Both the position numbers and the translations under genes were made by a program. The notes under the pieces are model-generated. The model was given only the letters and a program-made list of their open reading frames with translations. It made no database searches and was not told where the DNA came from. DNA of 34,328 nt from Asterionella formosa (taxonomy: Eukaryota), in NCBI GenBank assembly GCA_002256025.1, contig NKIB01000241.1:1-34328 (forward strand), read 5' to 3'. The first letter of the stretch is position 1. The number at the start of each line of letters is the position of its first letter. Positions 231 to 30,081 of this stretch are shown here, in pieces.

Positions 231-3200
231 ATGGTTACGGCCGATGAGAAATCAGGTGAAACTGTTTGCTTGATCAAGTTTGATGGAAGCGAAACTGCTT
301 GGCATGAGTGGAGTATCAAGACTCTTCAGCTTGCGAAATCTAAAGGATTTAGGCATGTTTATGCCAAAGACACGAAGCCAATCGACGATGATGCCTATTT
401 GGTGTCTACTGATGATGACGAGAAGAAGAAGTACGAGTTGAATGACAAGGCATATCAGCTATTGATTCTTAGTGTCAGTGGGATTGCATTTGGGATTGTG
501 AATTCTGCCAAGACAGATGATTTGATGGATGGAGATGCTTTTCTTGCCTGGCAGTATTTGGAAGATCGATATGCTCCTCATCAAGTTACTGATTTGATTC
601 AGCTAACAGGTGAATTCAACGATTGTACCTTGGAGAGTACTAAAGCAGACCCAGATGAATGGTTCATTGCTCTCGATAACATCAAGAACAGAATGCGTCA
701 AATTGATACATCATTTGAAAAGAAAGAGGTTGAAGTCATTGCGCACATGATGAACAAGTTACCTAAAGAGTACAGTGAAGTCATTACTGTTATTGAAGGA
801 ATGGGTACTATTACTTTATCAGATTTGAAATCTAAAATTCGTGCATTCTACCAAAGGAAGTTCAAGGATCTGAATACCAACGAGATTGCTTTGTGTGCAA
901 ATGGTAAATTCAAGGGACTTTGCAAGAATTGTGGAAAACAAGGACACAAGGCAGCTGACTGCCGATCCAAGAACAATACAGCAGGCGCAAACAAAGAAAC
1001 GAAAGGCAAAGGTGTCAAATGTTTCAATTGCAACAAGTATGCAGGTCACATTGCTAAGGATTGTCCTAAAGAAAAGAAAGAAATTGGAATGTTTGTTGGT
1101 ATTGTTGAAACGATCGAAATCCATGAAGGAAAGTCTGATACAGATGATGATTTTGAAATATTTGACTTGACTACAAACAACAAGACGTTTTTTGACTATG
1201 AATATGTTGAAGACACAAAGGTCTACACTACATGCGAAGAAACAGAATATGCATTTATTGGAATGACAATTGAAATTGTGGATGAAGAGATCAATCAAGC
1301 ACACCATGCAAGTATCAAAAACAGTGAGAGTAAAATTTGCGCATCAAGCGAGGAAAATGAACATTGGTTAGCTGATACAGGCGCAACCAGTCATATTACT
1401 ATGTGCAATAAGTATATGACAAATGTGAAAGCAGTAAATGTACGCGTTGTTGTAGGCGATGGTAAAGAAGTCATTTGCAAGGAACACGGAGATGTCTGCG
1501 TGCGAAACAAAGTGACCAATGAGACACTCTTTCTTACGAATGTCCTTTATACACCTACCTTTCATAAAAAAAATTATCAGCATTGGTAGTTTTGTACGTG
1601 ATGGTAAATACGAACTTGGTATGAAGCACAACAAAATGACTTTGACAAAAGCGGGAAAAACTGAGACGCTAGATTTCAAACGGAATCATTCAGATGTTTT
1701 GTACTATTTCCAAGGAACTCGTGGAATTTACCCAGGTGGGAGTGATATCTTATCTGCAGAGGTCACCACAACGAAATTGACCAGTATGGACATTAATGAA
1801 GCTCACGCTAAATATGGACATATTGGGAAAGCAGCATTGCGGGCGGGCTACTATGAAATCACTTGGTATCAAAATGACAGGTGTGATGTATACATGTGAA
1901 GGATGTGCGCTAGCTAAGGCTAAAGCAAAAAGTGTTCCTAAAATGACTATGAGCAAGGCTACTCAACCGGGCGAAAGTTTGTGCACAGATATCAGCGGTC
2001 CATATAAAAAGTCGATCTTAGAAAACGACTATTGAATCCTTGTTGTTGATGACTACACCGGAAAATCTTGGAGTTTCTTTGTTAAGAAGAAGTCACAACT
2101 TGCTTCAAAGATTGAAGATTTGTTGACTAAACTCAAAACGGCTGAGTATGTTACCAAGTTTCTCCGTTGTGACAATGCAGGTGAAAACGTCTCAGGTTTG
2201 ACAAAAGTATGCAACAAATTCAATATACAAATTGAGTTTACAGCACCCTACACACCACAACAGAATGGAATTGTTGAGCGAAAGTTTGTAACCATTCGTC
2301 AACTAGCATCTGCAGAAATATTTGCTGCAAAATTTAATGATGAATTTCAAGGTTTACTTTGGGCAGAGGCCATCAACACCAACACACGAATCACGAACAT
2401 TGTGGCCACATCTAATGATGGAAAAAGTGCAGATGAGAAGTTTTACAAAAAAGTTCCAATGATTTATGATCATCTAATGCATTTTGGCAGGATCGGATGG
2501 GTGAAAATTGGTGCTAAGAAAACAAATAAACTCGAAGAACAGGCCATTAAATGTGTGATGGTTGGTTATTCTCATGATCATGCTAGAGACACTTACGAAT
2601 GTTTAACCCTCAGACAAGAAAGATTTTAAATAGTCGAAACATTCGCTGGGCTGATTGGCATGGCCAAACAAGTCCAATCGCAGGTTTGAGGGATTTCAAT
2701 GTGGAAGGGGACACAGAAGTGGTTGATATTCCAATTGATGATGGAAAGCAGGACGAAGATGTTCTTCCTGTTGTGCCACCTATCCAGCAGGATATTGATT
2801 TGGAAACACCTGTTCCAGTTGTGAAACAAACAAGATTTCAGCTATCCGAAGCAGTGGGGAAGTTAGGCGATGAGATCAACAAAGATGCTTCGAAGAAGGC
2901 AAAATTGGAACGAGAATTGAAACGCCTTGACGGTTGCAAAGAAGTTACTGGCAAACGCAGTGCTCGGCGCAACTTACAACTAGATGACAAGAACAAAGGA
3001 TCAATTGAAGAAATAGATTATTCTGAAGCGGCCTATCAAGATGATGATGAACTATTTCAAAGTGAAGAAGGAGTAGAGAGGTTCTATGCATATTCTGCAG
3101 CTCTTGCTTCCGATCCTGGGGAGCCAAAGCATTACAAGGAGGCTATGAAAGGAGCCGAGAGCAAGCAGCGGACCGTTGCTATTAAAAATGAAATCAACAA

Positions 3201-3240
3201 TTTCTACAAGCGAAATGTTTGGAAAATGGTTCCTCGTGAC
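231..3240 (+). pseudogene. Disrupted copia gag-pol polyprotein
   Basis: Copia gag; zinc knuckles CKNCGKQGHKAADC and CFNCNKYAGHIAKDC; protease WLADTGATSH; pre-integrase HAKYGH..CEGC; integrase core; RT N-terminus EPKHYKEAM. Frameshifts near 1570 (poly-A), 1846 and 2597, and an in-frame TGA at 2033-2035 where element C has Trp. Confidence 0.92.
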
Positions 3241-3490
3241 GATTGGGCAAACCAATCCTGGCTGTTTGTGATTGGAAATGCCTTTCATACTACTTGGACC
3301 AGATTGGCAGGGCGGGATGTTTGATTCTCTTTTGGGACCAGAAAAAAGCACATTTGATTGATATTCTTTTTTACAGTACTTGCAATTCGCGAACTATAAC
3401 CTCAAACTTACATGTTCACAGCAAAACTTCTTGGTCTTAAAATAAAATAAAACTCTCAACCTTTGTTACAATTGATGGATCGGTTCAATT

Positions 3491-4129: not shown

Positions 4130-4253
4130 TACATATAATTTTTTATGCTGTCTAGATATGATAACATAAAACCAACAGTGCTATATACATTATCATATAC
4201 AAAATCAGAACCGAGTTTGAGTAATAGCATATCTTGTTTTCAATTATACAATT

Positions 4254-4680
4254 ATACAATCCTAAAAATGTGATGATTTACTGTTCCGCTGCAATAGCAG
4301 CAGTCATGAACATATGGTGTTCTGTTGCTTGCTTACTGCTCTGACCATCCTTTTTCAATTTTATGATCATACAATCCTAAAACTATGATGATTTACTGTC
4401 CCACAGCAGTAGCATCAGTCATGAACATATGGTGTTCTGTTGCTTGCTTACTACTCCGACTATCCTTTTTCATTTTTATGATCATATGATCCTGAAACTA
4501 TGATGCTTTTTTTTCGCTGCAGTAGCAGCAGTCATGAACATATGGTGCTCTGTTGCTCGCTTACTGCTCTGACCATCCTTTTTCAATTTTATGATCATAC
4601 AATCCTAAAACTATGATGATTTACTGTCCCACAGCAGTAGCAACAGTCATGAACATATGGTGTTCTGTTGCTCACTTACT
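4254..4680. repeat. Tandem repeat, ~115-bp unit, ~3.7 copies
   Basis: GTCATGAACATATGG recurs at 4303, 4418, 4531 and 4646 (spacings 115/113/115). Confidence 0.95.
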
Positions 4681-5723
4681 ACCTGCAGCGGTATACTGTT
4701 GTATCGTGGGAATCCCCTTTAACTGTGCAATTAGACCAGGAATAGGGGATTAGTGCTGATCGACTGAGACACACTGTCTCGGAATAGTGGACAAAAGACT
4801 ACCAACATTGTTCACGGGAGCCTTTGATCACCATGCCCTTTGAATCGCCTTCCCATACAAGCAAGCTGCACACTTTGGGATTCAAGCCCTCAAAAGCTTT
4901 CTAGGCAGATATCCACTCATGGACATGACATGCAATTGCTCGAAAAGGAAGATGATTCAGTTTATAGTGCTAGAGCAGCAGTGTGGCAGTAGTTGATAAG
5001 GAGTCCTCATCCTCAATCATGTTGCTGGGAAGTTTTGCATCATGAAGTGCCAGCTGTGTTACAAACTCATGAATAGGACCCCGAGAACTGGTGAGCGGCA
5101 GAACCGAATTCGGTTTGTTGTAAGTTTCTGAAGTCTTCTTCCAACTGAGGGTCCGATTATCTTCTAGATCAAAAGGGAGGGAGGCTTTCCTATGTTTTTC
5201 CTCATCCCCAGAGTCCTCGTCATCAGTAACAGTATTCATATTAAATCATAACATGTTAGATTCGACCCTGTCATCTTGCAGAACATTTCGGCAGCTCATA
5301 AACCGCGCGCTTCATTCCTGACGCAGATCGAAAAATAGCCACATTTGTTCCTGGGTCCAAGGGCACGCTTCTTGTCGCATAGTTCCCATGATTCCAATGC
5401 AGTACCACCTTGTCATCATATGCGGCACACCAGGTGCCTTTGATATTCTTATCATTTGCGGTTTGACTCCAATGTTGTGGAGAAAACATCTGGCATGGTG
5501 CCTTAGGGGCATATAGCATGCCTGGAATGACAAAAGCATGGATTCGCCCAGCATCGTCTTCAAACTTCAAATGAACTGTTCTCTTATGAGTGATTAAGAT
5601 GGGGCCTCCAATGCCATTTATCTGAGCTTTCACCTTGCTGGGTGTCCCTATGAAATCAGCAAAACAATTTGTAATGCACTTGGAACAGCAATTGTCGATC
5701 ATGATGGGGAAACTATCTGAGTC

Positions 5724-5845
5724 AAAAGGCACATGAGGAGCAGGCAATTGGCTGGCCGACGTCATGCCAACAATTGAGGTGCAAAAAAGGCACATGAGGA
5801 GCAGGCAATTGGCTGGCCGACATCATGTCAACAATTGAGGTGCAA
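5724..5845. repeat. 61-bp tandem duplication inside copia B, causing a frameshift just before the protease
   Basis: AAAAGGCACATGAGGAGCAGGCAATTGGCTGGCCGAC..CAATTGAGGTGCAA occurs at 5724 and 5785. Confidence 0.95.
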
Positions 5846-6641
5846 GCAATCAAATGGCGAGCAACCTGATATCTAGGTCGATGTCCTGTGGATCTCCGGG
5901 TAGTATTCCTGGAGACACCATTGGCTCTTGATGAGCATAGCAGAAAATCCCAACTCAAAAGTTATCTATAAGCTCCTCCCTGTTGATATCCCAGCTGTCT
6001 GTGCCACCAGCATATAAGTCGTCTATTCTGCTTGGGGGTATAAATGCATTTCTCAGGATTTTCACTAAATACTAACAAGCAGGTCCACATCATGATCACA
6101 GCCAACAAAACTATCCATCCACAAGGAAGGTATTCACTCAACAAATCCACGAAACTGAGAAGGGTCAACAGGGGAAGAATAACTTGAGTAGTAACATAAT
6201 TAGCCTCTCCAATTCATTTATCATCCCCTGGCCACTTCCCTATTCCATGCTGTCACCACCATTATCTTCATCCCGAGCATTATTGGAACCTTCATCATCA
6301 TCTTCCATTATTGTATTGTATGCCGCAGAAAGAGCTAGAGCTTTCTTGACCTTGTTACATTGCTTGTGTGGATCCTTGGGGACAGGGCGCACTTCATCTT
6401 TAATGTTGCACTCAGCAAGAGTGAGAACAGTTCAAGATGCATGATTAATACACCAGTGATACGACTTGCCATCAAAGATTTTGGATTTTGCATCTCCCTC
6501 AGCTGGGGGAACCAATTTCCAGGCCCATTTCTTTGCCACCTTGGCTTTGCGGGATTTCTCTTTCTTTTCAGCTGCCGCATCCTTGTTGTTTTTCTTAAAA
6601 TACTCCAACTTTGCAGTCAAAGCTATGATTTGAGCATCGGC

Positions 6642-7471
6642 NNNNNNNNNNNNNNNNNNNNNNNNNNNNNNNNNNNNNNNNNNNNNNNNNNNNNNNNNNN
6701 NNNNNNNNNNNNNNNNNNNNNNNNNNNNNNNNNNNNNNNNNNNNNNNNNNNNNNNNNNNNNNNNNNNNNNNNNNNNNNNNNNNNNNNNNNNNNNNNNNNN
6801 NNNNNNNNNNNNNNNNNNNNNNNNNNNNNNNNNNNNNNNNNNNNNNNNNNNNNNNNNNNNNNNNNNNNNNNNNNNNNNNNNNNNNNNNNNNNNNNNNNNN
6901 NNNNNNNNNNNNNNNNNNNNNNNNNNNNNNNNNNNNNNNNNNNNNNNNNNNNNNNNNNNNNNNNNNNNNNNNNNNNNNNNNNNNNNNNNNNNNNNNNNNN
7001 NNNNNNNNNNNNNNNNNNNNNNNNNNNNNNNNNNNNNNNNNNNNNNNNNNNNNNNNNNNNNNNNNNNNNNNNNNNNNNNNNNNNNNNNNNNNNNNNNNNN
7101 NNNNNNNNNNNNNNNNNNNNNNNNNNNNNNNNNNNNNNNNNNNNNNNNNNNNNNNNNNNNNNNNNNNNNNNNNNNNNNNNNNNNNNNNNNNNNNNNNNNN
7201 NNNNNNNNNNNNNNNNNNNNNNNNNNNNNNNNNNNNNNNNNNNNNNNNNNNNNNNNNNNNNNNNNNNNNNNNNNNNNNNNNNNNNNNNNNNNNNNNNNNN
7301 NNNNNNNNNNNNNNNNNNNNNNNNNNNNNNNNNNNNNNNNNNNNNNNNNNNNNNNNNNNNNNNNNNNNNNNNNNNNNNNNNNNNNNNNNNNNNNNNNNNN
7401 NNNNNNNNNNNNNNNNNNNNNNNNNNNNNNNNNNNNNNNNNNNNNNNNNNNNNNNNNNNNNNNNNNNNNNN
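6642..7471. other. Assembly gap (N run)
   Basis: Ns in the sequence. Confidence 1.
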
Positions 7472-9720: not shown

Positions 9721-9961
9721 GATGGTTGATGGTCTTGAGTTTCCTGTTGCATCAATTCTTTTACCCACTACATAGCTGTAAATCGTAATATAGAAATTTC
9801 ATTTAGACTAAACACATCGCATACTATATCTATGGTGGCCCAGCCATAATTGAGTCTATGCATGTATGATTCGAGAATTGATCAACACATAGCACGTATC
9901 ATGACCTTGTATGTATGAGTACAAGAACTGTAAACAGACATACAACGGTGTTGACTACCCG

Positions 9962-10122
9962 NNNNNNNNNNNNNNNNNNNNNNNNNNNNNNNNNNNNNNN
10001 NNNNNNNNNNNNNNNNNNNNNNNNNNNNNNNNNNNNNNNNNNNNNNNNNNNNNNNNNNNNNNNNNNNNNNNNNNNNNNNNNNNNNNNNNNNNNNNNNNNN
10101 NNNNNNNNNNNNNNNNNNNNNN
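9962..10122. other. Assembly gap (N run)
   Basis: Ns in the sequence. Confidence 1.
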
Positions 10123-11618: not shown

Positions 11619-13049
11619 TCAAGGAATAATAACACGCATTGTCACTGATGCTGCACTTAACCCCCAAAACAGTTCAAGTTGATCCGCAGTCAACAAGTCC
11701 TCTCCCATCACTCGTTCAAATTTCCACCCCAAATGCGAGTGACAAAAACGGCAATAGGCAATTGTCCACGAGTATCCAGGGAACCAACTATCTTTCGTTT
11801 CCTTACCACCAGTGTACCATAAATGTTGTTCAGAAACGGCCCGTAATGTGATTGTTTGATGAATCACTCCATATTCGTTCACATACGCTCCTGACGTTCC
11901 TTCAGAACCAGCGACGGTAAACATATCTGTAGCAGAAGATAACTTGGTACTGCATAGTTTGCACAAAACATATGTTTGCTGTCGTTCTTGTTCTACCACT
12001 TTGTCATAAATATACCGTAGCCTCTCAACAGTGCCACCGGTTTTCAAAATGTATAGCTTGTCATGTTCTGACAGAGCCATATTGGAGGCCATGTAAAAGG
12101 AAAACGCCATTGGCTCGTCAGATGGTGGATTCAGATTCCAAGGCATTCTCAGCAGGACCGACTTGATCTGGTCGACCAACCTCCATGGCCACACCATCCG
12201 ATAGCAAAAGGAAGGAATAGCTGTCATCATAGACAAGGACGCCATAATGCCATCTTGACGCTGTAGACTGGATGATTGGGAACACATTGGCCTTTGAATG
12301 GGTGGTCGCTTTAATTCATCTTCAAATATTTCTTGTATTTGATAGAATTTCAAACCTACCAGGTCGTCGTCATTGTGGTATCTGCCATCTTGATCTGCAA
12401 CGCCGCCTACAATACGACATCGTCTCGTTCCCAACGCAGTCACAATAAGTTCGTCATATTCATCCACAACTTCTTCGTCACCATGTGTATACGTAACGGT
12501 CACAATGGTTCCAACACGTCCCAACAATGGGTCTCGTTCTATGGACGAGTCTCTTCGAATTCCATTTTCATTCAATGGAATTGGAGGTTCGTCGTCGTTT
12601 ACCAACAAACGTTGGTCTATAACATGCAAGCGAGATGCCCTCCTCGTCCAGCTTGATCGTTGACGATGCGACTGGACACGAGTTGGAATGTGTGTGAAAA
12701 TTCCAATTCGCACCTCCTTCCCCACCTCTATTAGTTGGCGAACATACTGGGCCCATTGTCGATGGACCAGTCGTAATGGCAGCGTGTTTCCTGGAAAGAC
12801 CACAACTCCTGGGAGTTGGAGGACAGGGAGCGTTGTTGTTGTATGATCAGTGACGACCCATCGATGCAATAAAATGTCTTGTGAAACAAAAAGTGAATGA
12901 GAAGCGCCAGGTAAGTAGGAATGATGCGAATAATTGGGACTGGAGTGTTGGTGTTGTGGTAAGGCGCTGGTACCACCATCGTCTAGATTCATCATGACTT
13001 CGTCGTGTTGATCCTCGCCTTCTATCTCTCCTTGATGATTTGTCAGCAT
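11619..13049 (-). CDS. CRBN: Cereblon homologue (Lon-N-like domain plus CULT/thalidomide-binding domain)
   Basis: LPVLQLPGVVVFPGNTLPLRL (Lon N-domain); SFYMASNM; Zn ligands CKLC and CRFC; YVNEYGVIHQT; SWFPGYSWTIAYC..CHSHLGWKF; FWGL. Uninterrupted 476-aa ORF. Confidence 0.95.
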   Translation of the reverse strand: MLTNHQGEIEGEDQHDEVMMNLDDGGTSALPQHQHSSPNYSHHSYLPGASHSLFVSQDILLHRWVVTDHTTTTLPVLQLPGVVVFPGNTLPLRLVHRQWAQYVRQLIEVGKEVRIGIFTHIPTRVQSHRQRSSWTRRASRLHVIDQRLLVNDDEPPIPLNENGIRRDSSIERDPLLGRVGTIVTVTYTHGDEEVVDEYDELIVTALGTRRCRIVGGVADQDGRYHNDDDLVGLKFYQIQEIFEDELKRPPIQRPMCSQSSSLQRQDGIMASLSMMTAIPSFCYRMVWPWRLVDQIKSVLLRMPWNLNPPSDEPMAFSFYMASNMALSEHDKLYILKTGGTVERLRYIYDKVVEQERQQTYVLCKLCSTKLSSATDMFTVAGSEGTSGAYVNEYGVIHQTITLRAVSEQHLWYTGGKETKDSWFPGYSWTIAYCRFCHSHLGWKFERVMGEDLLTADQLELFWGLSAASVTMRVIIP

Positions 13050-14373
13050 GATGGGAGTCTACTGAGACTCAGTGCTATATAAGTTGAGGTGGGTCTGTTG
13101 TCATCATGGAGCACAGCGAGAATTCTTGCTTTTGTTTCAGATGATACCTAGTACTGATGACCACCAGGTACCGTATGAGAGTTCGTTCAAAACGACAACA
13201 CATAGAAGTACGCACCAGGTATACCAGGTCCCAGGTACAAGACGATCACATCATGAGCACGTATGGAACACGGTGCCGTGTTTGAAGGTGCGTATGAAGT
13301 ACCGGTACCAGGTCCTCCACCTGATACCTGTACTAAATGTGTCCCCGGCAACGTACCTTACCACTGGTACGGACTCTGATTTGTGACGTAACAAAACATC
13401 AATTTCTATGAGACGCATGGTACATACTACGTTGTATTTGAGTACCGGTTCAGTTGTGTTCACGACTGACGTGATAATTACCAGGTATACAAATACAACA
13501 GCATACTACATGAATAATTTAGTTTTAAGGTCCTTCGCATTCCTCCTACCGGTACACATGTTGTCTTCGCCTTCAAATATATACTGGCATTCCAAGATAT
13601 ACTTTTGTTTAGCACGTACTGGCATGTCCATCAAAAGACTTGCATCTTTTTTTAGTGCACTGCAATTTCTTTCCAACATCAATGAATATAGAGTCCACAA
13701 CAACATCTTCAAGGCAAATCATTGACATCACATGGAGCACTTGTCATGTTGGATCATGGAATTGTGATGCCAGGGCAATAACTCCTTCGAATTCCTAACT
13801 TCATGTAGAAAGTATTCTATGTAAACATTGTCCCTCTTACATTTTCTGACAGTCCAACAATCTACCAACACGATGGACAGTTTAGAGGACAATGAGAAAT
13901 TTTGCTTTGAAGATCCCTAGAATTACTCTATTTTAGTATACTGATGATCAAACCAAATATTGCTCTTCAAACAGCATCAATCCAATTTCATTGCTGACAA
14001 TAGTTGGCTCATTCACCATGATGCCAACCATGATTAAAACAGAGGGATAAAACTCTTGCAAAGGAAGTCAACTAAAAAGGAAAAGTGGATGATCTAAAAT
14101 AATCAATTCTTTAAATAAGCTACATGACATTACAGCAGGGGACATCGAAGGATAGCTAATTCCGCCAGAAACAACAAGCACAGTTCTCCATATGCATGTC
14201 TGACTTGATGATGTGTCAGTCGCACATGATATGTGGAACGTCTCAGGTTCACGTAGTTCTTGTACCAAGGTAGAACAACTACGTCTTGAAAATAAAATAA
14301 GGTAGTCTAATTGAAGGATTGCAGTAAAAGACGGTTTTTCTAGAAGGAAGAAATTGCTAAATCTCGTCTCATT

Positions 14374-18479: not shown

Positions 18480-21200
18480 ATTGTTTATGTCGTTGGTGAC
18501 GATAGGTACCAGGTGAAGTATCTAACTAGAAGTAGTACTAGTATTTGTTGAATGTATGAGCTTATTTGTTAATCCTTGTGTGTAACTCGTTCTCTAAGTC
18601 GACACCAAAGTATACAATATAAGGGTTAGTCGAGTTCTCTCATTATGGAGTTCTGATATATATGATATAACACGAACCGTATATACATCTGTATTGATGT
18701 GCAAGATCGCTCACTCTCCCACACCAAGGGAAAACCTTTTACCTTTGAAAAGGTTTGATGTAATGAATGTTAATTCGTTCCGTACTATGCATGGTTTGTT
18801 GAAAAGTAACCGTACCATTGGTATATATGGTTGAATAATAGAATAAGGACCTCATCCATGGTCATCCAAGGTATTAATAGAATCCAATAGGATTAAAATC
18901 TCACCAACTGTGTAATCGCAAGAACGACGACGGAAATTATCACGACGTAGACATTTGTCAATCATCACTTGTCGACCTTGATATCCCAATATCAATTGCA
19001 TATCTGTAATCAAAGGAATATTTAATATCATATCATGTTGGAAAACCCAGCCATATTCCTGGTGAAATAAACAATGTACTGGGGGGGGGGGGGATTAAAT
19101 ACGCAATTTCCTATAAATAGTAGCTCGAGCTGCATACATGTTGGAAAACCCAGCCATATTACTGGTGAAATACGCAATGTACTATAAATAGTAGCTCGAG
19201 CTGCATATGATGCATCTGCAAAACATGTATCCACGATATTCTGAGCTTGAAGTTCCTTGATTGGAGGATGAGCCTTTAACATAACTCGTAGACTATTACT
19301 GATAGATTGATGTAAACGTTCACGGATAGCAGTTGTTGATGGATTCTTGACTGCAACAATCCCAATTTTAATTCCATTCAAAGCTAACATGTGTATGAAA
19401 GGAATACCAGTAAATTGACCTCCATTGTAATGTATACAACCTTTTGGACGGAGATATCTGTCTAAACAATCCTTTTCAAATTTCACCGCAACATATTCTG
19501 ATGTCTTATTATTGATTTGTGAAATTTCTGGTAAATTGGTGACTGTGATAACTCAAGTTGGAGCACGAAATTCAATCGCTTGTGCAGCCACTGTTATCTT
19601 CCATGGAACAATGAAATCCATTGTGATTTCTGATCATTGTAGAAACAATGCATTCCTTGGTGGAAGTTCACCAAAAACCAGCACCAGGTAATTTTGTACG
19701 TTTTGACATGTTTCATATATGCTTGCTATATGTTTCACTCTTGCCTTAAAAAGTATTTCATCTTGTCATACCCACATGAGCTAATATCTGATGATACCAA
19801 TTAATAATAGGATCCAATGATAGTAATGTTGGAATAACAATACGTCAAGTATCTCCTGGATTCTTCACAAAGCATATTAAATGTATATCATGAAAATTGA
19901 TAAAGGGAAATTTTAACGGATGTGTTTGTTGATTGAGAATGAGATGTTTGGTTAGATTGAGAATCAATTGTATATCCAGCAATTGTCTATCATGTATTGA
20001 ATTATAATCCAGAGGATATTGAATATTGTCTGCCAAGATTGGATGATTGAGGAGACAGGCAAACAGAGGTACATGTCATCTAATTCAATTGAGAAAATAG
20101 AAGTGGATGTTGATGCTGAAGGTTCGGCCCAACTAAATCAATTGATAAAGTAGAAGTGGATTTTGATGCTGACGATTTCGGCCCAATATCATCCCCCACC
20201 AAAGACTCAAGCCTCGGGAGGCGAGAGATAGAATCTGTAATATTTGACCTTATCAGTACCTCTTCATATCGTGAAAAGTAAGAAGATATTCTTCAGTATA
20301 AAGCCTCCACCGGAGAACACGTTGATTTTCTGTGTAGGGCAATGTAGATTAAAAAAAGATCAGTGTGAACATGTAGAACCGCATTCAATAAAATAGAGCG
20401 AAATTCTTTGAAAGTTTCTTAATTGAAAATCAGAAACATTAGTAAAAAATATGGAAAGGAAAATTACGATCAGGATAGCTCATGAGTGTATCTGCAACTA
20501 ACAATGCTTTCATTGATTCAAAAGCTTGTTGATGTATGCATAGGTAACCATACAAATGGACCAGTTCCATGTAAATACTTTTTTAATTTTGAAGACCAAA
20601 ATTTGAAGTCGGTTGGAGTTTATCGATATCCCAATAAGCCAGTTTCTTCATTAGGCCATTTCATTCGGAATTGCACTGGATGACTTGTGGTTAAATACAT
20701 TTATTTCAGCCATAACAGCAGCTTTCCGTATCTGTATAGTTAGCAGCTTTAATACTCCATGTGTGAATATAATCCTCGATAGATGTATCAAAATAGAATA
20801 ATCCATCATGTAAATGTTCTGTATCATTGTAGAAATCAATGACATGCAGAAAAACACTGATATATCCACCACATAGGACATATTATTTTGTACAAAATCC
20901 ATCATAAATTATCCAGCTGGACAAAATGAGCAAACTCGCAGAATTTACTAAGACCAGGTACTTTTGTTGCAGGATACAAGCTGACGGATTAAATTTTGGG
21001 AGCATCATGCATGTTTTATGAAAGAGTACTGGCAAAGGAAGAAAAGATGGGATCATACCTGCTATGCATGGTATATATTAATTATAAATGTTCGATTTAC
21101 AACGAAATGTCCTTAAGTGAAATCCTTTCATAAGTTAAAGATCAGGACCCACCGCGATCAAGTAATATTCATCTTATGTCATGTATATACAACGCAGCCA
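18480..21200 (-). mobile_element. Heavily decayed Ty3/gypsy retrotransposon (RT-RNaseH-INT plus probable 3' LTR)
   Basis: Order RT (YVVDI), RNaseH (ETFKEFRSILL..LHVHTD; QRVLRWRLYTEEY), integrase (RYLRPKGCIHYNGGQFTG..KNP..AIRERLHQ), ending ERINIHYIKPFQR* at 18739. A purine tract GGGAGAG is followed by TG at 18713, the likely LTR start. Outer limits approximate. Confidence 0.85.
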
Positions 21201-21828: not shown

Positions 21829-22237
21829 TGTCAAGAATATTAGCCCGAGTCACATGGATTGTGGATTCGCTTGTAATCAAACGAGTCGAATAATGCATTG
21901 CCACGTCAATCAGCTGTCTAACGAGATCAAAGATTGAAGATTTCTATGGAAATGTTAAGTGGAAAATCGAGGAGAGTCTTTGAACGGCTTTGCAGGAAGC
22001 AAAGATGCATGGAAAGGAAACATTTAGTTTAGCTTATAATTTAATTTGAGTTTTAGATTATCAACCGAGGAAACAGTGTGTTAATTGACAGGAAGGTCAA
22101 TAAGTCTATCTAGCAGGAAGGCTGGAAGCAGGGACAAGAAGAGAGAAAGTAAGAGGTACTAGGTAGTACTACGATCACGTAAGAGTCTACGTGAAGAGAG
22201 ACCCAGCTCGCAGGAAGGAGTACGGACCATTTCAACA
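21829..22237 (+). repeat. 5' LTR of copia C (409 bp)
   Basis: TGTCAAGAAT...TTTCAACA; direct repeat of 26705-27110 with about 21 substitutions and one 3-bp indel by manual alignment. Confidence 0.97.
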
Positions 22238-22273
22238 CGCTTTAAAGCGGATAGGTTTGAAAGGGTACTCAAG

Positions 22274-25200
22274 ATGGGAATTGACGACGAATCGTCAGGA
22301 GTGCGGTTGCCAACATTTGATGGTAACGATGCCAAGTGGCACATTTGGAAAGCGAAGTTTGTGGCCTATGCCTGCTACAAAGGTTTTGAAGGAATCCTAA
22401 ATTGAGATGAAGTATCACCAGGTGAGAGAGATTCAGCTGGAGTGAAGATTGTTCCGAGCGACAACGATGAGAAGCGTGCGAAACGAAATAATACGGTTGC
22501 ATATGCAAGTTTGATTATGGCATGTCAGAGTGGACCATTTGGATACGTAAATGCTGCCAGAAGTGAAGAGTTCCCCAATGGAAATGCGAAGGAAGCGTGG
22601 GACAAGTTAGTTTCTACGTGCGAGTCAAGTAATATGGCAAATGTGATTGCCTTGTCAGGTCAGTGGACAAAATGCACGATTAACGAGAATGAGAACCCCG
22701 ACATTTGGTTTGTGGAGTTGGATAGAATTCGAGAACGATTGAGCCGTACGAGCTCCGCAATTTCGGATGGTGCCTATGTGGCTCACGTTGTCAACAACCT
22801 ACCGGAAGTCTACAAGAGTTTGGTGGTTGGAAAATTTGGTCTCGCGAGCTCCGAGCTCACGATCCAAGAGGTCAAGAAGAATGTACGCGACTACCGGTAT
22901 TATTACAATTTGTATGTGCGTGACAAAACCAAGACAAGTAAGAATAGCGAGCAGGCCTAGCGAGCAGGCCTTCTTTTCAAAAAGCAAGTTTAATGGAGAC
23001 TGCAGGAAGTGTGGCAAGTATGGCCACAAGGCAGTTGATTGCCGAAGCAAGGGCAATACTACAGAAAAGAGAGAATTAACTCCCGAGCAACGGAATAAGA
23101 GAAAGAATGCGAAGTGTTATAATTGCCAGAAGATGGGGCACTATGCCAGTGAGTTCAACAATCAACAAAATGTACCAATCAAACAGAAGGGAGAAGACGC
23201 CAACACCACTACGCAAGGAATGTTCGTGGTGACGTGTATTGAGGCAAGGTACAACGAAGAGGTAAATCATACGTGCATGCATAAGGACCATTGGCTACTA
23301 GATAGTGGTGCTACGGTACATATATGCAATGATGAGCGCATCATGGAGGACAAGCGCGCAGTGCATGAAACTGTTCTTGTGGGAAATGGCGCAGCAATTG
23401 TTGCGACCGTATCAGGCACGGTGACCCTTACGACGACAGACAAAGGAAAAGTGTTGAAACTCACCAATGTGCTCTATGCACCGGAGTTCACGCAGAGCAT
23501 CATCAGCATTTCGAGAATTATTGACAAGGGAATCAAAGTTATGTTTGACGATGATAAGATGACAATCAGAAACAACAACGGATTTTTGATCTGCAAACGT
23601 GATGAAACGAGGACAATTGGTGCAATGTACCATGTGCAAGGAACGCCTATTCTAAAGGAAATGGTGTTGGAGGTTGAACAAGAAAGCGAGAAGCCAACAC
23701 AACAATCTATCGACTATGATAAAGAAGACAAGAATGAATGGACGAAAGTCGACGAAAAGAAGTAAACGACGAAAGCGAAAGATGAAACGATCAAGAAAAG
23801 AAACGCGAACGAATATAATGATGTGATTGTGGAAATAAATGAAGCGCACGAAATGCTTGGACATGTGGGGGAAAAATGTCTTCGTGAGACATCGAAATTA
23901 TTTGGGTGGAAACTTGTTGGAAATTTAAAGGTGTGCGCAGGATGCACAGCAGCCAAGGCGAAAGCACGCGCAGTACCCAAGATGACGCAAGAGAAGGCTA
24001 CGACACCAGGAGAAAGACTGTCTATTGATATTAGCGGACCCTACTCAAAATCCGCTGTGGGAAATCAGTATTGGGTGATGGCCGTGGACGATTATACAAG
24101 GAAACGCTGGAGTTATTTTATCAAGAAGAAAAGTGACATCAGAACTGTCATTGGAGCGTTACTCACAAAACTTGCCGGTGCAGGACATAAGACTAAATTT
24201 TTCCGATGTGATGATGCAGGTGAGAACTCCAAGCCACTAAAGAAAGTATGTGAAAACCAAGGTGTCAAGATGGAATTTACGGCACCTCATACTCCGCAGC
24301 ACAATGGTGTTGTGGAGCGTGGTTTTGTTACAGTGCGTCAGAGAGCACTTGGTATGATGCTAAGTGCGAAGTTTACAGATGAATATCAGGGGCTATTGTG
24401 GGCAGAAGCTGTACATACTGCGACAAGATTGACAAACAGTACAGTGAATTCAGTGACTTAGAAGAGTCCTGATGATGTGTTCTATGGAGAAACGAATACA
24501 AGGCGGCCCTACAAGCTCTACAGGCAATTTGGACGTGTTGGTTGGGTTACTATAAGAGAAGGTGTCAAGAAATTAGATGCACGTTCCATCAAGTGTGTCT
24601 TTTTGGGATACTCAGATGACCACTCTCAAGATACGTATTGCATGTATAATCACGAGACAAATACATAAAACCAGTCATCAAGCAACCAACAGGATACGGA
24701 GATATCAGTACGAGAAGATAATGAAGAATTGCATGACGATTTTTATGACAAGTTCGAACCTCGAGAAGTGTCCGATAATGAAGATGAAGATGATGACAAG
24801 CAAGAATTGGGGAGGAAAACTGAACAATCAACTAAGATAGATGGTACTACGAAATACGAAGATACAGGTACCAATACCCCAATTGTGAAGGCTAAACGTG
24901 CGGAAAGTGCTCAGTCTAAGCAAGCGAAGTTGGCACGTGAAATGCGAAGATTGGACTCATCGTTCAATCCTACGAGTACGAAAATTGTGAAATTTTCAGG
25001 AGATACTGAGATGCCTGGTGTTATCAAGGAGGATGACATGAAGGAAGTTACAAAGAATACACAGATGAATCTTGTGTACAACGCAAGTCTGGCTTCTGAT
25101 CTAGGATTGCCAACAAGCTACAATGAAGCAATGGCAAGACCAGACAAGAAAGAGTGGATCAAGGCGATCAACAAAGAATATGAAAACTTCCAGTCGAGAG

Positions 25201-26813
25201 GAGTGTGGAAAGTTGTCAAGCGTGACACTGTTAAAAAGCGAACACTAAAAACGAGATGGGTGTTTCGAATTAAAGAAGATGTGGTAACCGGGAAGAAAAT
25301 TTACAAGGCAAGATTGGTCGTGAAGGGATATGAGCAAATCCCAGGTATTGATTTTACTGAGACATTTGCTCCAGTCGCAAGCGATGCGACAATCAAAACG
25401 GTAGTAGCAGTGACGATGTATAACGGTTGGCGAGCAGAGGCTATAGATGTGGAAGCAGCATTTCTAAATGCTGATGTCGATGAGAACATTTAAATTGAGC
25501 CCCCTCAAGCTTTGATCAGAGTCGATTCCGATACACATGTTTGCAAACTTGTGAAGGCTATGTAAGGGATAGTACAAGCTCCACAATGCTGGTCCAGGAC
25601 GTTTGCGAAATGTGTCACCAATAAACCAGGTATGACAAAGAGCAAGATCGACCCTATGTTATTTATGCACCGGAACAAGGATGGACAAATTGATGGTCTA
25701 CTTGTTAATTACGTGGTTGACGGTATTGTATGTGGGACTCCAAGTGCAGTGGAGTATATGAAAAATGTTATCAAGGAAGATTTCAATATTACCAAGCAGG
25801 GTATTGTACAGAAACACCTAGGAGTGGAATATGCTTGGAAAGAGGACAAGTATGGTGAATACTGGGAGGTGCAGATGCAGAAATTTCGTATGCAACTTCT
25901 ACACGAATACGAGAAGCTGACCGGTATGAAAATTCAGTCATACACAACGCCGGGCGTACCAGGAAAGACATTGAACAAAAATGACGAAAAAGTCATTATG
26001 GAAGGAGAATATCGAAAAATTGTGGGCAAGTTATTATGGTCTACAAAGAAGGATTCGCCGGACTGTGCAAATGCGGTTCGGGAATTATCGGCTCATTTAA
26101 GCTGCCCAGGTGAAGAACAATGGCATACAGTGGCAAGAGTCATTGGTTACCTATCCAATATGGAGGATAGAGTTCTCAAGTTACGTAAGCCAAAAGAGTT
26201 AAGAGTCATTGCCTACATGGACAGTGACTCGGCTGCTAATAAGGTTAACAGGAAGAGCGCGACTGGCTATCTTGTAACTATTGGCGGGGCACTTATCAGT
26301 TGGCAGTCGAAGGGACAACAAACGGTTACGCTGTCCAGCACGGAAGCCGAGTATGTGGCGATGTCCCAGTGTGAACAAGAGATCAAGTTCATAGCAATGC
26401 TACTGAATGAGGTTACTGGTGGTAAGGTCATGTTACCAAGTATCCTACGAGAAGACAATACAGGAGCTATTTTTATCGCGAAGAATCAGCAAATCGGAAC
26501 CTGGACAAAACACATTGATTATAAGTATCATCATGTAAAGGACATGATTGAGGATGAAGAATTGGAAGTCATTTTTATAAGGTCGGAAGATAATTTTGCG
26601 GACATTATGACCAAGAACGTGAAGGAACAGATTCATACGAGATTGTCCGAACCAGTTCAGAGTGGAACGATGTTACAGCCTCTTGAGCGTGGCAATGGGG
26701 AGGATGTCAAGAATATTAGCCCGAGTCACAAGGATTGTGGACTCGATTGTAATCGAACGAGTCGAATATTGCATTGCCACGTCAATCAGCTGTCTAACAA
26801 GATCAGAGATTGA
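22274..26813 (+). pseudogene. Copia C gag-pol, ancestrally one ORF, now with several stops and a frameshift
   Basis: MGIDDESSGVRLPTFDG..; knuckle CRKCGKYGHKAVDC; WLLDSGAT; integrase; RT KARLVVKGYEQIPGIDF, DVEAAFLNA, YVDD mutated to YVVD; RNaseH LSSTEAEY..EDNTGA..ADIMTK. Stops at 22403, 23763, 24459, 24666, 25491 and 25563. A 13-bp duplication at 22945-22970 shifts the frame. Confidence 0.95.
26697..26704 (+). other. Polypurine tract of copia C
   Basis: GGGGAGGA immediately before the TG of the 3' LTR. Confidence 0.85.
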
Positions 26814-27110
26814 AGATTTCTAAGGAAATGTTAAGTGGAAACTCGAAGAGAGTCTTAGAATGACTTTGCAGGAAGCAAAGATGCATGGAAAGGAAACATT
26901 TAGTTTAGCTTATAATTTAATTTGAGTTTTAGATTATCAACCGAGGAAACAGTGTGTTAATTGACAGCAAGGTCAATTAGTCTATCTAGCAGGAAGGCTA
27001 GAAGCAGAGACAAGAGAGAAAGTAAGTGGTACTAGGTAGTACTACGATCACGTAAGAGTCTACGTGAAGAGAGACCCAACCCGCGGGAAGGAGTACGGAC
27101 CATTTCAACA
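26705..27110 (+). repeat. 3' LTR of copia C (406 bp)
   Basis: Direct repeat of 21829-22237. Confidence 0.97.
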
Positions 27111-28392: not shown

Positions 28393-30081
28393 TTAGCCTT
28401 CATAGAATTTAGGAGGCCTGAATACAGCATATAGATTCATTTTGATTCTTTCAAATCGAACTGGTTTTTCTGGCAAATGAACAATAAATGCATCTTCCTT
28501 TTCAGAGTCATAGTAGCTAATCCTGTACCTATCTGCCATTTCAGTGTAACTGAAGATGTTGGTAATTGCCTTGTCATTAAACCATACTTCTCCCCATTGT
28601 GGAAGATCAGCCTTCGTATTAGTGACCATGGATCCACCATTTGTGGCCAGATGCATGTATCCATTGTTAGACATTCGATTTTTTTCAACCATTTTTGGAT
28701 TGCAAAAGACTGTAACACTTGATGGATTGTCTAATAGTATCCAGTCATGCATCTCAGATGCTTGATAGAATTGTAATTTCATGTTAGCTCCTTCCCATCC
28801 CACTTGATTGACATTTGCTTGTTGTGAAGCTTGTGGTGACTGTGGGCTATTGGAAGTAACAGAGGTAACCGTACTTGTGTCCGATGTAGTGGCCTGTGCC
28901 TGTGCATGGCTTCCTTGGGCCTTGTTGATTGCCCGTTCCTCTTTGGGTTTATTCTTCTCACGAAATCATGGTGATTTATGTCCAGCTCTTCCACAGTAGT
29001 AAGCAACATTATCCTTCTAATTGTGCAAACGATAAGTTCACATCTTCATCGACTTCGAAGCATCCTTTGATCCCTATCTTTTCTTGAGATCCCCTGGATT
29101 CATGCAACCGTTTAGTTTAGTTGTTATGTCGATGACTGTTGAGTGTTCAGCCCAGTCATAATTGATCTGTATTTGTCCTGGTATAAATAGGCCTGGAATT
29201 GACTGAATGCCTGTTCTCGAAATTTATCTTGTAGCTTGATATTTGTCTCATAGTACCCATCCATGGCGACAATGAACTTGGTTAGGATAATGAGTCCTCC
29301 AATGTGTGACTTGAGCACATCTCATGCCACACGAGATCTCTTGGTATAGTCCTGAAGAATTTCTCCATCCTTTTGCTTTGTAGTTAATTTCGTTTTCATT
29401 GCATCTAAAATGATCGACATTGAATATCGATTCTCTTGATAAGTTAGTGTGTGTTCTTTAATTGCAAAAAGTAGGTTATTGGGTGATTTTTGATCCTATT
29501 GTAATCCAATCTCGCTTTGATCTTGTTCTTCATAGTTTTGTTGCATCTTTCCCAGAGCAATGCTTATGCCTTGGTGTTATTATTTTCATAGGTTAGTAAC
29601 CTCTTTCTTTATGCATCATAATCGCAAAAAGCAACAAGGTAATTGGATTATTTTTTAATTTACATAATCCAATCTTGCTACAATCTTGTTTTTTCATAGC
29701 CTTGTTGCATCTTTCCCAGAGCCACGCATACGCCTTGATATTGTTATTGTTGTATTTATATACTCTTTTATTGTAGGCGATCATCATCTGTGGTTGCGAG
29801 GCTCACTTGCATTTTTGGCATCCATGCTGATTTGCTCATTGGCTGGTTCTAATAACTTGAGCGCGCTTCATATATCATTCCCATAGTCGAAGTTTCTTGA
29901 TATAATTAATGAGATACTCAGTATTAGTCTCATAGTCAGATTCCTGCTTCGCTGATCTGAGGTAGTATTTGTAGTCATTAACATACTTCTTGTTGGTTTA
30001 AGAAGCTTTATTGCTCCCTCCCTTAGCTTGAAACTTGCCCTTGGCCTAAGCCTTCTTGGTAAACTTTCCTTTGTCACTCAT
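28393..30081 (-). mobile_element. Ty1/copia (CoDi-type) relic D: gag plus protease, truncated before integrase
   Basis: Gag start MSDKGKF, ..DYGNDI, KAYAWLWERCNKAMK; decayed knuckle YCGRAGHKSP; protease WILLDNPSSVTVFCNP..TNGG..GEVWFNDKAITNIFS. Part of gag is duplicated internally (~29490-29590 vs ~29660-29760). Confidence 0.85.

Follow-up and report, generated by a model that had tools for sequence, protein, structure and literature searches.

The window analyzed here, a stretch of 34,328 nucleotides from Asterionella formosa (contig NKIB01000241.1), carries two Copia elements: a truncated one at its start, element A, and one with both of its long terminal repeats (LTRs) in place, element C. 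Their features are as follows.

1 to 199, + strand: partial 5' LTR of the truncated Copia element A, ending ...CAATTTAACA
200 to 211, + strand: CATTTTAAAACG, which is the palindrome CGTTTTAAAACG of family A decayed by one base
231 to 3324, + strand: gag-pol remnant of element A, with gag about 30% and integrase 57% identical to those of element C
21829 to 22237, + strand: 5' LTR of element C, 409 nt, TGTCAAG...TTTCAACA, aligned with the 3' LTR
22238 to 22249, + strand: perfect 12-nt palindrome CGCTTTAAAGCG, in the place of the primer-binding site and adjoining the terminal CA of the LTR
22250 to 22273, + strand: 24-nt spacer ahead of gag, which varies between families
22274 to 26813, + strand: broken gag-pol of element C, recognized from ORF pieces and the Pfam domains gag_2, zf-CCHC, Pol_BBD, rve and RVT_2
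26697 to 26704, + strand: polypurine run GGGGAGGA, abutting the 3' LTR
26705 to 27110, + strand: 3' LTR of element C, 406 nt

Element C is a Ty1/copia LTR retrotransposon, with TG...CA LTRs, a polypurine tract and Pfam domains in the order listed above, which is that of Copia elements (gag, protease, integrase, RT/RNase H). Its LTRs are identical in 385 of 409 aligned columns (94%), and the alignment places their common end, ...TTTCAACA, at 22237 in the 5' copy and at 27110 in the 3' copy; past this end the two copies are no longer alike (CGCTTT... behind the 5' LTR, GCTAAAG... behind the 3' LTR). With the border fixed in this way, the original prediction that a perfect palindrome lies right behind the 5' LTR is borne out, as is its placement of the gag ATG 24 nt beyond the palindrome, at 22274 to 22276. 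It was also correct in reporting neither a TGG-initiated primer-binding site nor a GGTTATG half-tRNA-Met site, since neither motif occurs between the LTR end and the gag ATG.

The copy of element C in the window is decayed and old: its gag-pol frame is split into several ORF pieces, its LTRs are only 94% identical, and no 5-bp target-site duplication was seen (the flanks are ACTCA and GCTAA). An in-frame TGA in its gag (22401 to 22405) is a minority state; most contigs of all four sequencing runs examined have G at 22401 and 22403, as does an intact relative, L001. The purine run at the matching place in another relative, L003, is GAGGAGGA. The spacer of element C pairs weakly with the palindrome, no better than shuffled sequence, and the leaders of elements C and A likewise fold no better than shuffles (z from -1.5 to +0.6), with the 12-mer not placed in a loop. 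A search with ARAGORN found no tRNA in the window.

Elsewhere in the window, an intron-less host ORF of 479 aa (11619 to 13058, - strand) encodes a cereblon-like protein with LON substrate-binding and Yippee/Mis18 domains, whose relatives fall into eukaryotic clusters of mixed composition, and a tandem array of four units of about 115 nt (4169 to 4682) lies just past the truncated element A. Three other long ORFs (5271 to 5822, 19028 to 19552 and 28393 to 28965, all on the - strand; the first and last without a Pfam match) may be remnants of other mobile elements. Runs of N at about 6640 to 7470 and 9960 to 10120, 991 in all, are assembly gaps.

A 12-nt palindrome is unremarkable in itself: the window holds 16, compared with 9.75 ± 3.1 in shuffles, or about 2.9e-4 per position. 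What goes beyond chance is the place of this palindrome and its recurrence in relatives. Metagenome contigs were scanned with an alignment of the A and C integrases, which gave nine loci, eight of them holding a leader; scans of viral contigs found nothing. Together with elements A and C of the window, these eight loci (of which L007 has two copies) provide 11 junctions, all located by homology and position and not by palindromy. The leader of element A reads ...CAATTTAACA CATTTTAAAACG AACC..., followed by ATG, and the LTR end of family A is known to within 1 nt from the 3' LTR of L004. At all 11 junctions a 12-mer follows directly after ...AACA, and eight of these 12-mers are perfect palindromes.

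C, L001 and L002: CGCTTTAAAGCG, perfect
L003: CGCTTTAAAGCG, perfect; 5' region 73% identical to that of C, leader unalignable
L004 and L008 (family A): CGTTTTAAAACG, perfect
L005: CGTTTATAAACG, perfect
L007, second copy: CGCTTGCAAGCG, perfect
Element A of the window: CATTTTAAAACG, imperfect; frame broken
L006: TGTTTATAAACT, imperfect; frame broken
L007, first copy: TACTTGCAAGCG, imperfect; frame of 1494 aa open, start ATG lost

The palindrome is thus a conserved feature of this lineage at the place of the primer-binding site, as had been predicted, and the three imperfect 12-mers sit in copies that look mostly decayed. Open frames of 1494 to 1580 aa are found in L001, L003, L004 and both copies of L007; L001 encodes an intact Gag-Pol of 1530 aa with CCHC knuckles, YVDD and DSPDC. 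The nearest named proteins, at 43% identity, are from the diatoms Fistulifera and Fragilaria. The source of a 99% identical Pol fragment calls it "histone deacetylase 1/2", and a further relative bears the name "transposase InsO family protein"; these names look like misannotations of Copia Pol. In L007 (700 to 10419), two copies of the same family stand in tandem, with the middle LTR common to both.

These families look alive on the basis of their intact frames, while their abundance and transcription are indicated through contig data only. Sequence words of the stretch are present in 20 runs from 13 studies, including 6 RNA runs. The best DNA run, which is algal, has 57,637 contigs on element C, and the contigs of one RNA run cover 22213 to 26831; the four runs examined consist of contigs, which strictly show neither copy number, transcript ends nor transcription. 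None of the variants listed (40 of 516 rows with another letter and 12 of 65 indel rows) falls in 22238 to 22249, which we do not count as conservation, and indels begin at 22255 in one RNA contig. The minority TGA noted above agrees with element C of the window being a decayed member of a family that is still living.

More distant relatives were obtained by scanning prokaryotic genome contigs and then searching a gag profile in four records of metagenome-assembled genomes (MAGs). Records labeled as bacterial MAGs (L010 to L019, and G001 to G004 with L020 to L070) contained many Copia gag and pol contigs, with up to 26 gag matches per record, which indicates eukaryotic (algal) contamination of these bins. 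The distant rows given below have less weight than the 11 junctions, as they were chosen as palindromes preceded by CA upstream of gag and have LTR ends that are not fixed.

L018: ...TATCA CGATTATAATCG
L022, L045, L046 and L053 (the G003 group): ...TTTTAACA CGATAATTATCG
L024: CGATAATTCTCA, a decayed form
L028: ...CTCAACA TACTTTAAAGTA
L025, sister of L028: ...CTAACA TACCAATTGGTA
L047: ...TTTCAACA CGTTTTTAAAAACG, a 14-nt palindrome

Within the G003 group, the 12-mer is identical even though the flanks are only 74 to 78% identical or cannot be aligned. No junction between a 3' LTR and its flank was found in G003, and the MAG-derived contigs carry one collapsed LTR or none. The palindrome extends to A...T only in L003 and the G003 group. 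The leader of L025 between palindrome and gag, about 560 nt long, is taken up by tandem repeats with a unit of about 30 nt (AGGGTAAGACGCAATATAAAAACGAATAAC). Over all the relatives, there are eight distinct perfect 12-mers and one 14-mer, and at least ten families of a single algal Copia group have a perfect palindrome of 12 nt (once 14 nt) immediately behind the terminal CA of the LTR.

Not all members of this group share the feature. No CA-preceded palindrome was recognized in 11 gag-bearing loci (L015, L017, L026, L027, L030 to L032, L039 and L041 to L043), six of which form a supported clade in the gag tree. This tree comprises 18 rows; L015 is left out, as are L045, L046 and L053 for their short matches and L026, L029 and L041 to L043 as partial. 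It does not resolve the deep forks, and L047 sits on a very long branch. In the clade that has no uninterrupted palindrome, L031 has an interrupted one (TATTTAA, 6 nt, TTAAATA) directly after ...AACA, about 40 nt after ...TTAACA, and L027 and L031 share GTACT...AGTAC arms; this may represent the same site in hairpin form. Two other relatives found with the same gag profile, L023 and L029, show what an ordinary site looks like in this group, where such sites are also present: the leader ahead of gag contains the half-tRNA-Met-type GGTTATGAGCCC, which in L023 stands directly behind ...CACA, and the site reads GGTTATGAGCCCAAGAG in L023 (about 215 to 240) and in L029.

The original prediction had proposed that the relatives be examined for covariation. 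For this purpose the palindrome was scored as six nested pairs, with 500 shuffles and slid windows as controls. In the 11 unselected rows (8 distinct), 93.8% of cells were paired, compared with 80.3% in shuffles, and two of the six pairs were changed on both sides; the covariation score was 0.464, compared with 0.197 in shuffles and at most 0.167 in the slid controls, and it was reached by none of the 500 shuffles. When seven rows were added (18 rows, 13 distinct), 93.6% of cells were paired (67.5% in shuffles), five of the six pairs showed two-sided change, and the score rose to 0.692 (0.191 in shuffles, at most 0.286 in the slid controls), again reached by 0 of 500 shuffles, counts that are not probabilities because the shuffle control leaves relatedness in. 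More weight attaches to the slid controls and to the recurrence of two-sided changes. Among the eight distinct perfect 12-mers, each of the six pairs occurs only in two or three states, all of them complementary.

Pair 1/12: CG, TA
Pair 2/11: GC, AT
Pair 3/10: CG, TA, AT
Pair 4/9: TA, CG
Pair 5/8: TA, AT
Pair 6/7 (central): TA, AT, GC

Self-complementarity has therefore been kept through compensatory changes, an outcome in favor of the original prediction, and the 12-mer is under selection for self-complementarity in this Copia group. Positions 1, 2, 4 and 5 hardly vary, and pairing by itself is therefore insufficient to account for the whole pattern. Had element C been considered by itself, its broken state and the palindrome content of the window (16 where about 10 are expected) would have been compatible with a palindrome that is purely a product of chance and has no function in a decayed copy. 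The presence of a 12-mer at the same place in all 11 junctions, and in distant families with compensatory change, refutes this explanation, to which we give practically no credence.

The covariation also bears on the type of pairing. The original prediction had envisaged a fold-back, in which an RNA ending at the last G would form a hairpin of 4 bp with a 4-nt loop (CGCT-TTAA-AGCG) and prime itself. The four outer pairs can indeed form such a hairpin in all of the families, and its 3' end would lie at the U5 border; however, pairs 5/8 and 6/7, which would form the loop, change only in a compensatory manner, the central pair among all three of its states. Furthermore, the predicted hairpins are marginal (-0.1 to -2.5 kcal/mol), whereas the 12-bp homodimers have energies of -11.8 to -21.1 kcal/mol. 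Compensatory change within the would-be loop and the marginal hairpins together indicate a duplex between two copies over a hairpin. We therefore favor a 12-bp duplex between two RNAs and regard intramolecular fold-back as quite improbable. The other arrangement that had been put forward, pairing with the partner genome, is favored by these homodimer energies as far as the pairing goes; that the partner RNA also acts as the primer is what we infer.

If the palindrome occupies the place of a primer-binding site, the nature of the primer must be considered. Other Copia elements use internal tRNA fragments, namely half-tRNA-Met, half-tRNA-Ile and an internal region of tRNA-Lys (PMC6317226, PMC5445492), and the GGTTATGAGCCC of L023 and L029 shows a site of the half-tRNA-Met type among the relatives themselves; the 12-mer could accordingly be a conventional site at which a fragment of a host tRNA, or some other host RNA, anneals, its palindromy being a coincidence. 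However, this would take nine host RNAs for the nine different palindromes, every one of them self-complementary over 12 to 14 nt, and two different palindromes (those of A and C) are found in one genome, so that a single host RNA cannot serve both. In the palindrome families, neither a TGG start nor GGTTATG was found among the eight 12-mers, the 14-mer and the leaders, and the sequence behind the 12-mer is unconserved among families. A search of Rfam gave no tRNA-like match; its sole match, GlsR14 (16 bits, E 0.3), is far below threshold and is taken as chance. In the tRNA cloverleaf, the anticodon and T arms have 7-nt loops, and loops of this size cannot center a perfect even palindrome. A host-RNA primer is thus set aside by argument, from the nine words and the two in one genome, and not by a search of host RNAs; we consider it very improbable.

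Two known arrangements were also tried and rejected. For priming of the Tf1 type, the upstream LTR was compared with the site extended by 6 nt, and in six of six families it held a complement of at most 6 nt or none. For a downstream box like the CHSeq2 of fungal GalEa elements, pairing of the leader was better than in shuffles in only one of six families (L003, fraction 0.016); in the others the fraction was 0.17 to 0.88.

According to the established model of reverse transcription, the position at which the 3' end of the primer anneals determines the inner border of an LTR. The 12-mer begins at +1 of this border, the LTR end being fixed by the second LTR in element C and within 1 nt in family A, and it is therefore best read as the primer site. 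On balance, we lean toward the view that the 12-mer is a primer-binding site and owes its palindromic form to a primer of identical sequence, supplied by another copy of the RNA of the element itself. In Tf1, an RNase H cut within an RNA duplex supplies the 3'-OH of the primer. By analogy, it can be imagined that two genomic RNAs, or a genome and a fragment, would be joined by the palindrome in an RNA duplex of 12 bp and that one strand would be cut just 3' of the palindrome. The 3'-OH left by this cut would be base-paired to the partner precisely at the U5 border, and reverse transcriptase would extend it into the U5-R of the partner and so produce minus-strand strong-stop DNA. With primer and site being the same word, the site would be regenerated at plus-strand transfer, and dimerization and initiation would be coupled in one element. 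A cut 3' of the site would sever the site of the cut RNA from its coding part; hence, the model needs one RNA to be sacrificed.

The duplex could have another role. Self-complementary motifs are candidate dimerization sites in retroviruses and in Ty1, itself of the Copia type, where the 6-nt motifs PAL1 to PAL3 have been proposed to act in genome dimerization beside the tRNA site (PMC3592414). Like these motifs and the retroviral dimerization signal (DIS), the algal palindrome is self-complementary and near the 5' end of the genomic RNA; its 12-bp homodimers are stable, and covariation of all six pairs fits dimerization equally well. It may therefore be only a dimer-linkage or packaging signal, with another primer being used. 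The motifs of Ty1 and the retroviruses, however, measure 6 nt, are found in loops or short stems and have a separate tRNA site next to them, whereas the algal palindrome occupies the primer site itself, in every family exactly at the LTR border where the primer must anneal, and there is no other site between LTR and gag. We consider a role restricted to dimer linkage unlikely, while judging it the foremost of the alternatives to priming by the partner RNA.

Next in our judgment is the possibility that the palindrome is a DNA or RNA site for a dimeric protein, of the element or of the host, that acts in transcription, packaging or integration. A homodimer recognizes identical inverted half-sites, so symmetric change of both halves would be expected here as well, and the nearly constant outer CG and TT..AA hint at sequence-specific recognition. 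Against this, the half-sites differ among the close families A, L005 and L007, which group together in the gag tree, and the specificity of such a protein would have to coevolve fast; nor would a protein site explain the exact +1 place or the absent primer site. We hold this explanation to be improbable, and we rank fold-back and then a host-RNA primer below it.

The choice of the primer for minus-strand synthesis is a defining step in the replication of LTR retroelements, and the routes that are understood are tRNA 3' ends, tRNA halves and fold-back of the Tf1 type. The original prediction had confined self-priming to Ty3/gypsy elements, which is incorrect: self-priming of the Tf1 kind has been predicted for the plant Ty1/copia element TAR (PMC6317226). 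Like the Tf1/sushi type and TAR, the mechanism proposed here would be independent of tRNA: the RNA of the element would furnish the primer, and cutting of an RNA duplex would provide its 3'-OH. It differs from Tf1 in that the Tf1 site complements the first bases of the transcript, whereas the algal site pairs with itself and has no complement of 7 nt or more in the LTR in any of the six families. The half-tRNA-Met elements copia, Osser and Bryco (PMC6317226) belong to the same superfamily, and in the algal group it is L023 and L029 that carry a site of their type, GGTTATGAGCCC, in contrast to the palindrome families, which are without GGTTATG.

The closest precedent is provided by the fungal GalEa elements, and the background on copia priming in the original prediction was incomplete in this respect. 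In GalEa, a palindromic "Conserved Hairpin Site" (CHS) adjoins the 5' LTR in place of the primer-binding site; there is no tRNA site, and the authors found no complement to U5 and state that no model fits (PMC5445492). In the literature that we searched for palindromes at the primer-binding place of LTR elements, we found only this report and a paper citing it (PMC6934838); a paper on the diatom CoDi elements (PMC2806351) contains no discussion of primer sites. CoDi-like clades of diatoms, Ty and GalEa have been placed in one branch of Copia (PMC5445492). GalEa and the algal group are alike in being Ty1/copia elements without a tRNA-complementary site and with a palindrome abutting the 5' LTR, and GalEa LTRs likewise end in ..aaCA or ..caaCA.

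There are also clear differences. The CHS box is 9 nt long and palindromic only together with the last A of the LTR (10 nt), and a second box, CHSeq2, lies 2 to 41 bp downstream with a fixed A/A mismatch (PMC5445492); the algal palindrome is 12 nt long (once 14), starts after the A of the LTR in most families, and has no consistent second box, with leader pairing in one of six families. The CHS occurs in essentially two sequence forms, CTGATCAGT and CTAATTAGT, which differ at paired positions (PMC5445492), compared with the eight 12-mers and one 14-mer of the algal group, whose words differ from both. The GalEa proteins have C2C4C4H, QTDD and CQPEA where the algal ones have CCHC, YVDD and DSPDC, and the hosts are fungi in the one case and algae in the other.

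As a more tentative proposal, which we regard as possible but somewhat short of probable, the GalEa CHS and the algal 12-mer would represent one mechanism of the Ty/CoDi/GalEa branch in two versions, which may be inherited or convergent. This would be a third route of initiation beside tRNA priming and Tf1 fold-back, in which copackaged genomic RNAs pair through the palindrome and one of them, once cut, primes the other, so that dimerization and initiation are one act.

Pipelines that filter for sites of the tRNA type, such as the LTRdigest filter (PMC7466962), would miss such elements. A second lineage, algal and related to diatoms, now shows the design seen in GalEa, and in it all six pairs covary, the center included. 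What was a curiosity thereby becomes a constraint, that of a full 12-bp self-duplex, and a concrete mechanism can be put forward for it. In conclusion, a palindromic site that replaces the primer-binding site was previously known in GalEa; what is new here is its rich variation, with covariation, in a diatom-related algal lineage.
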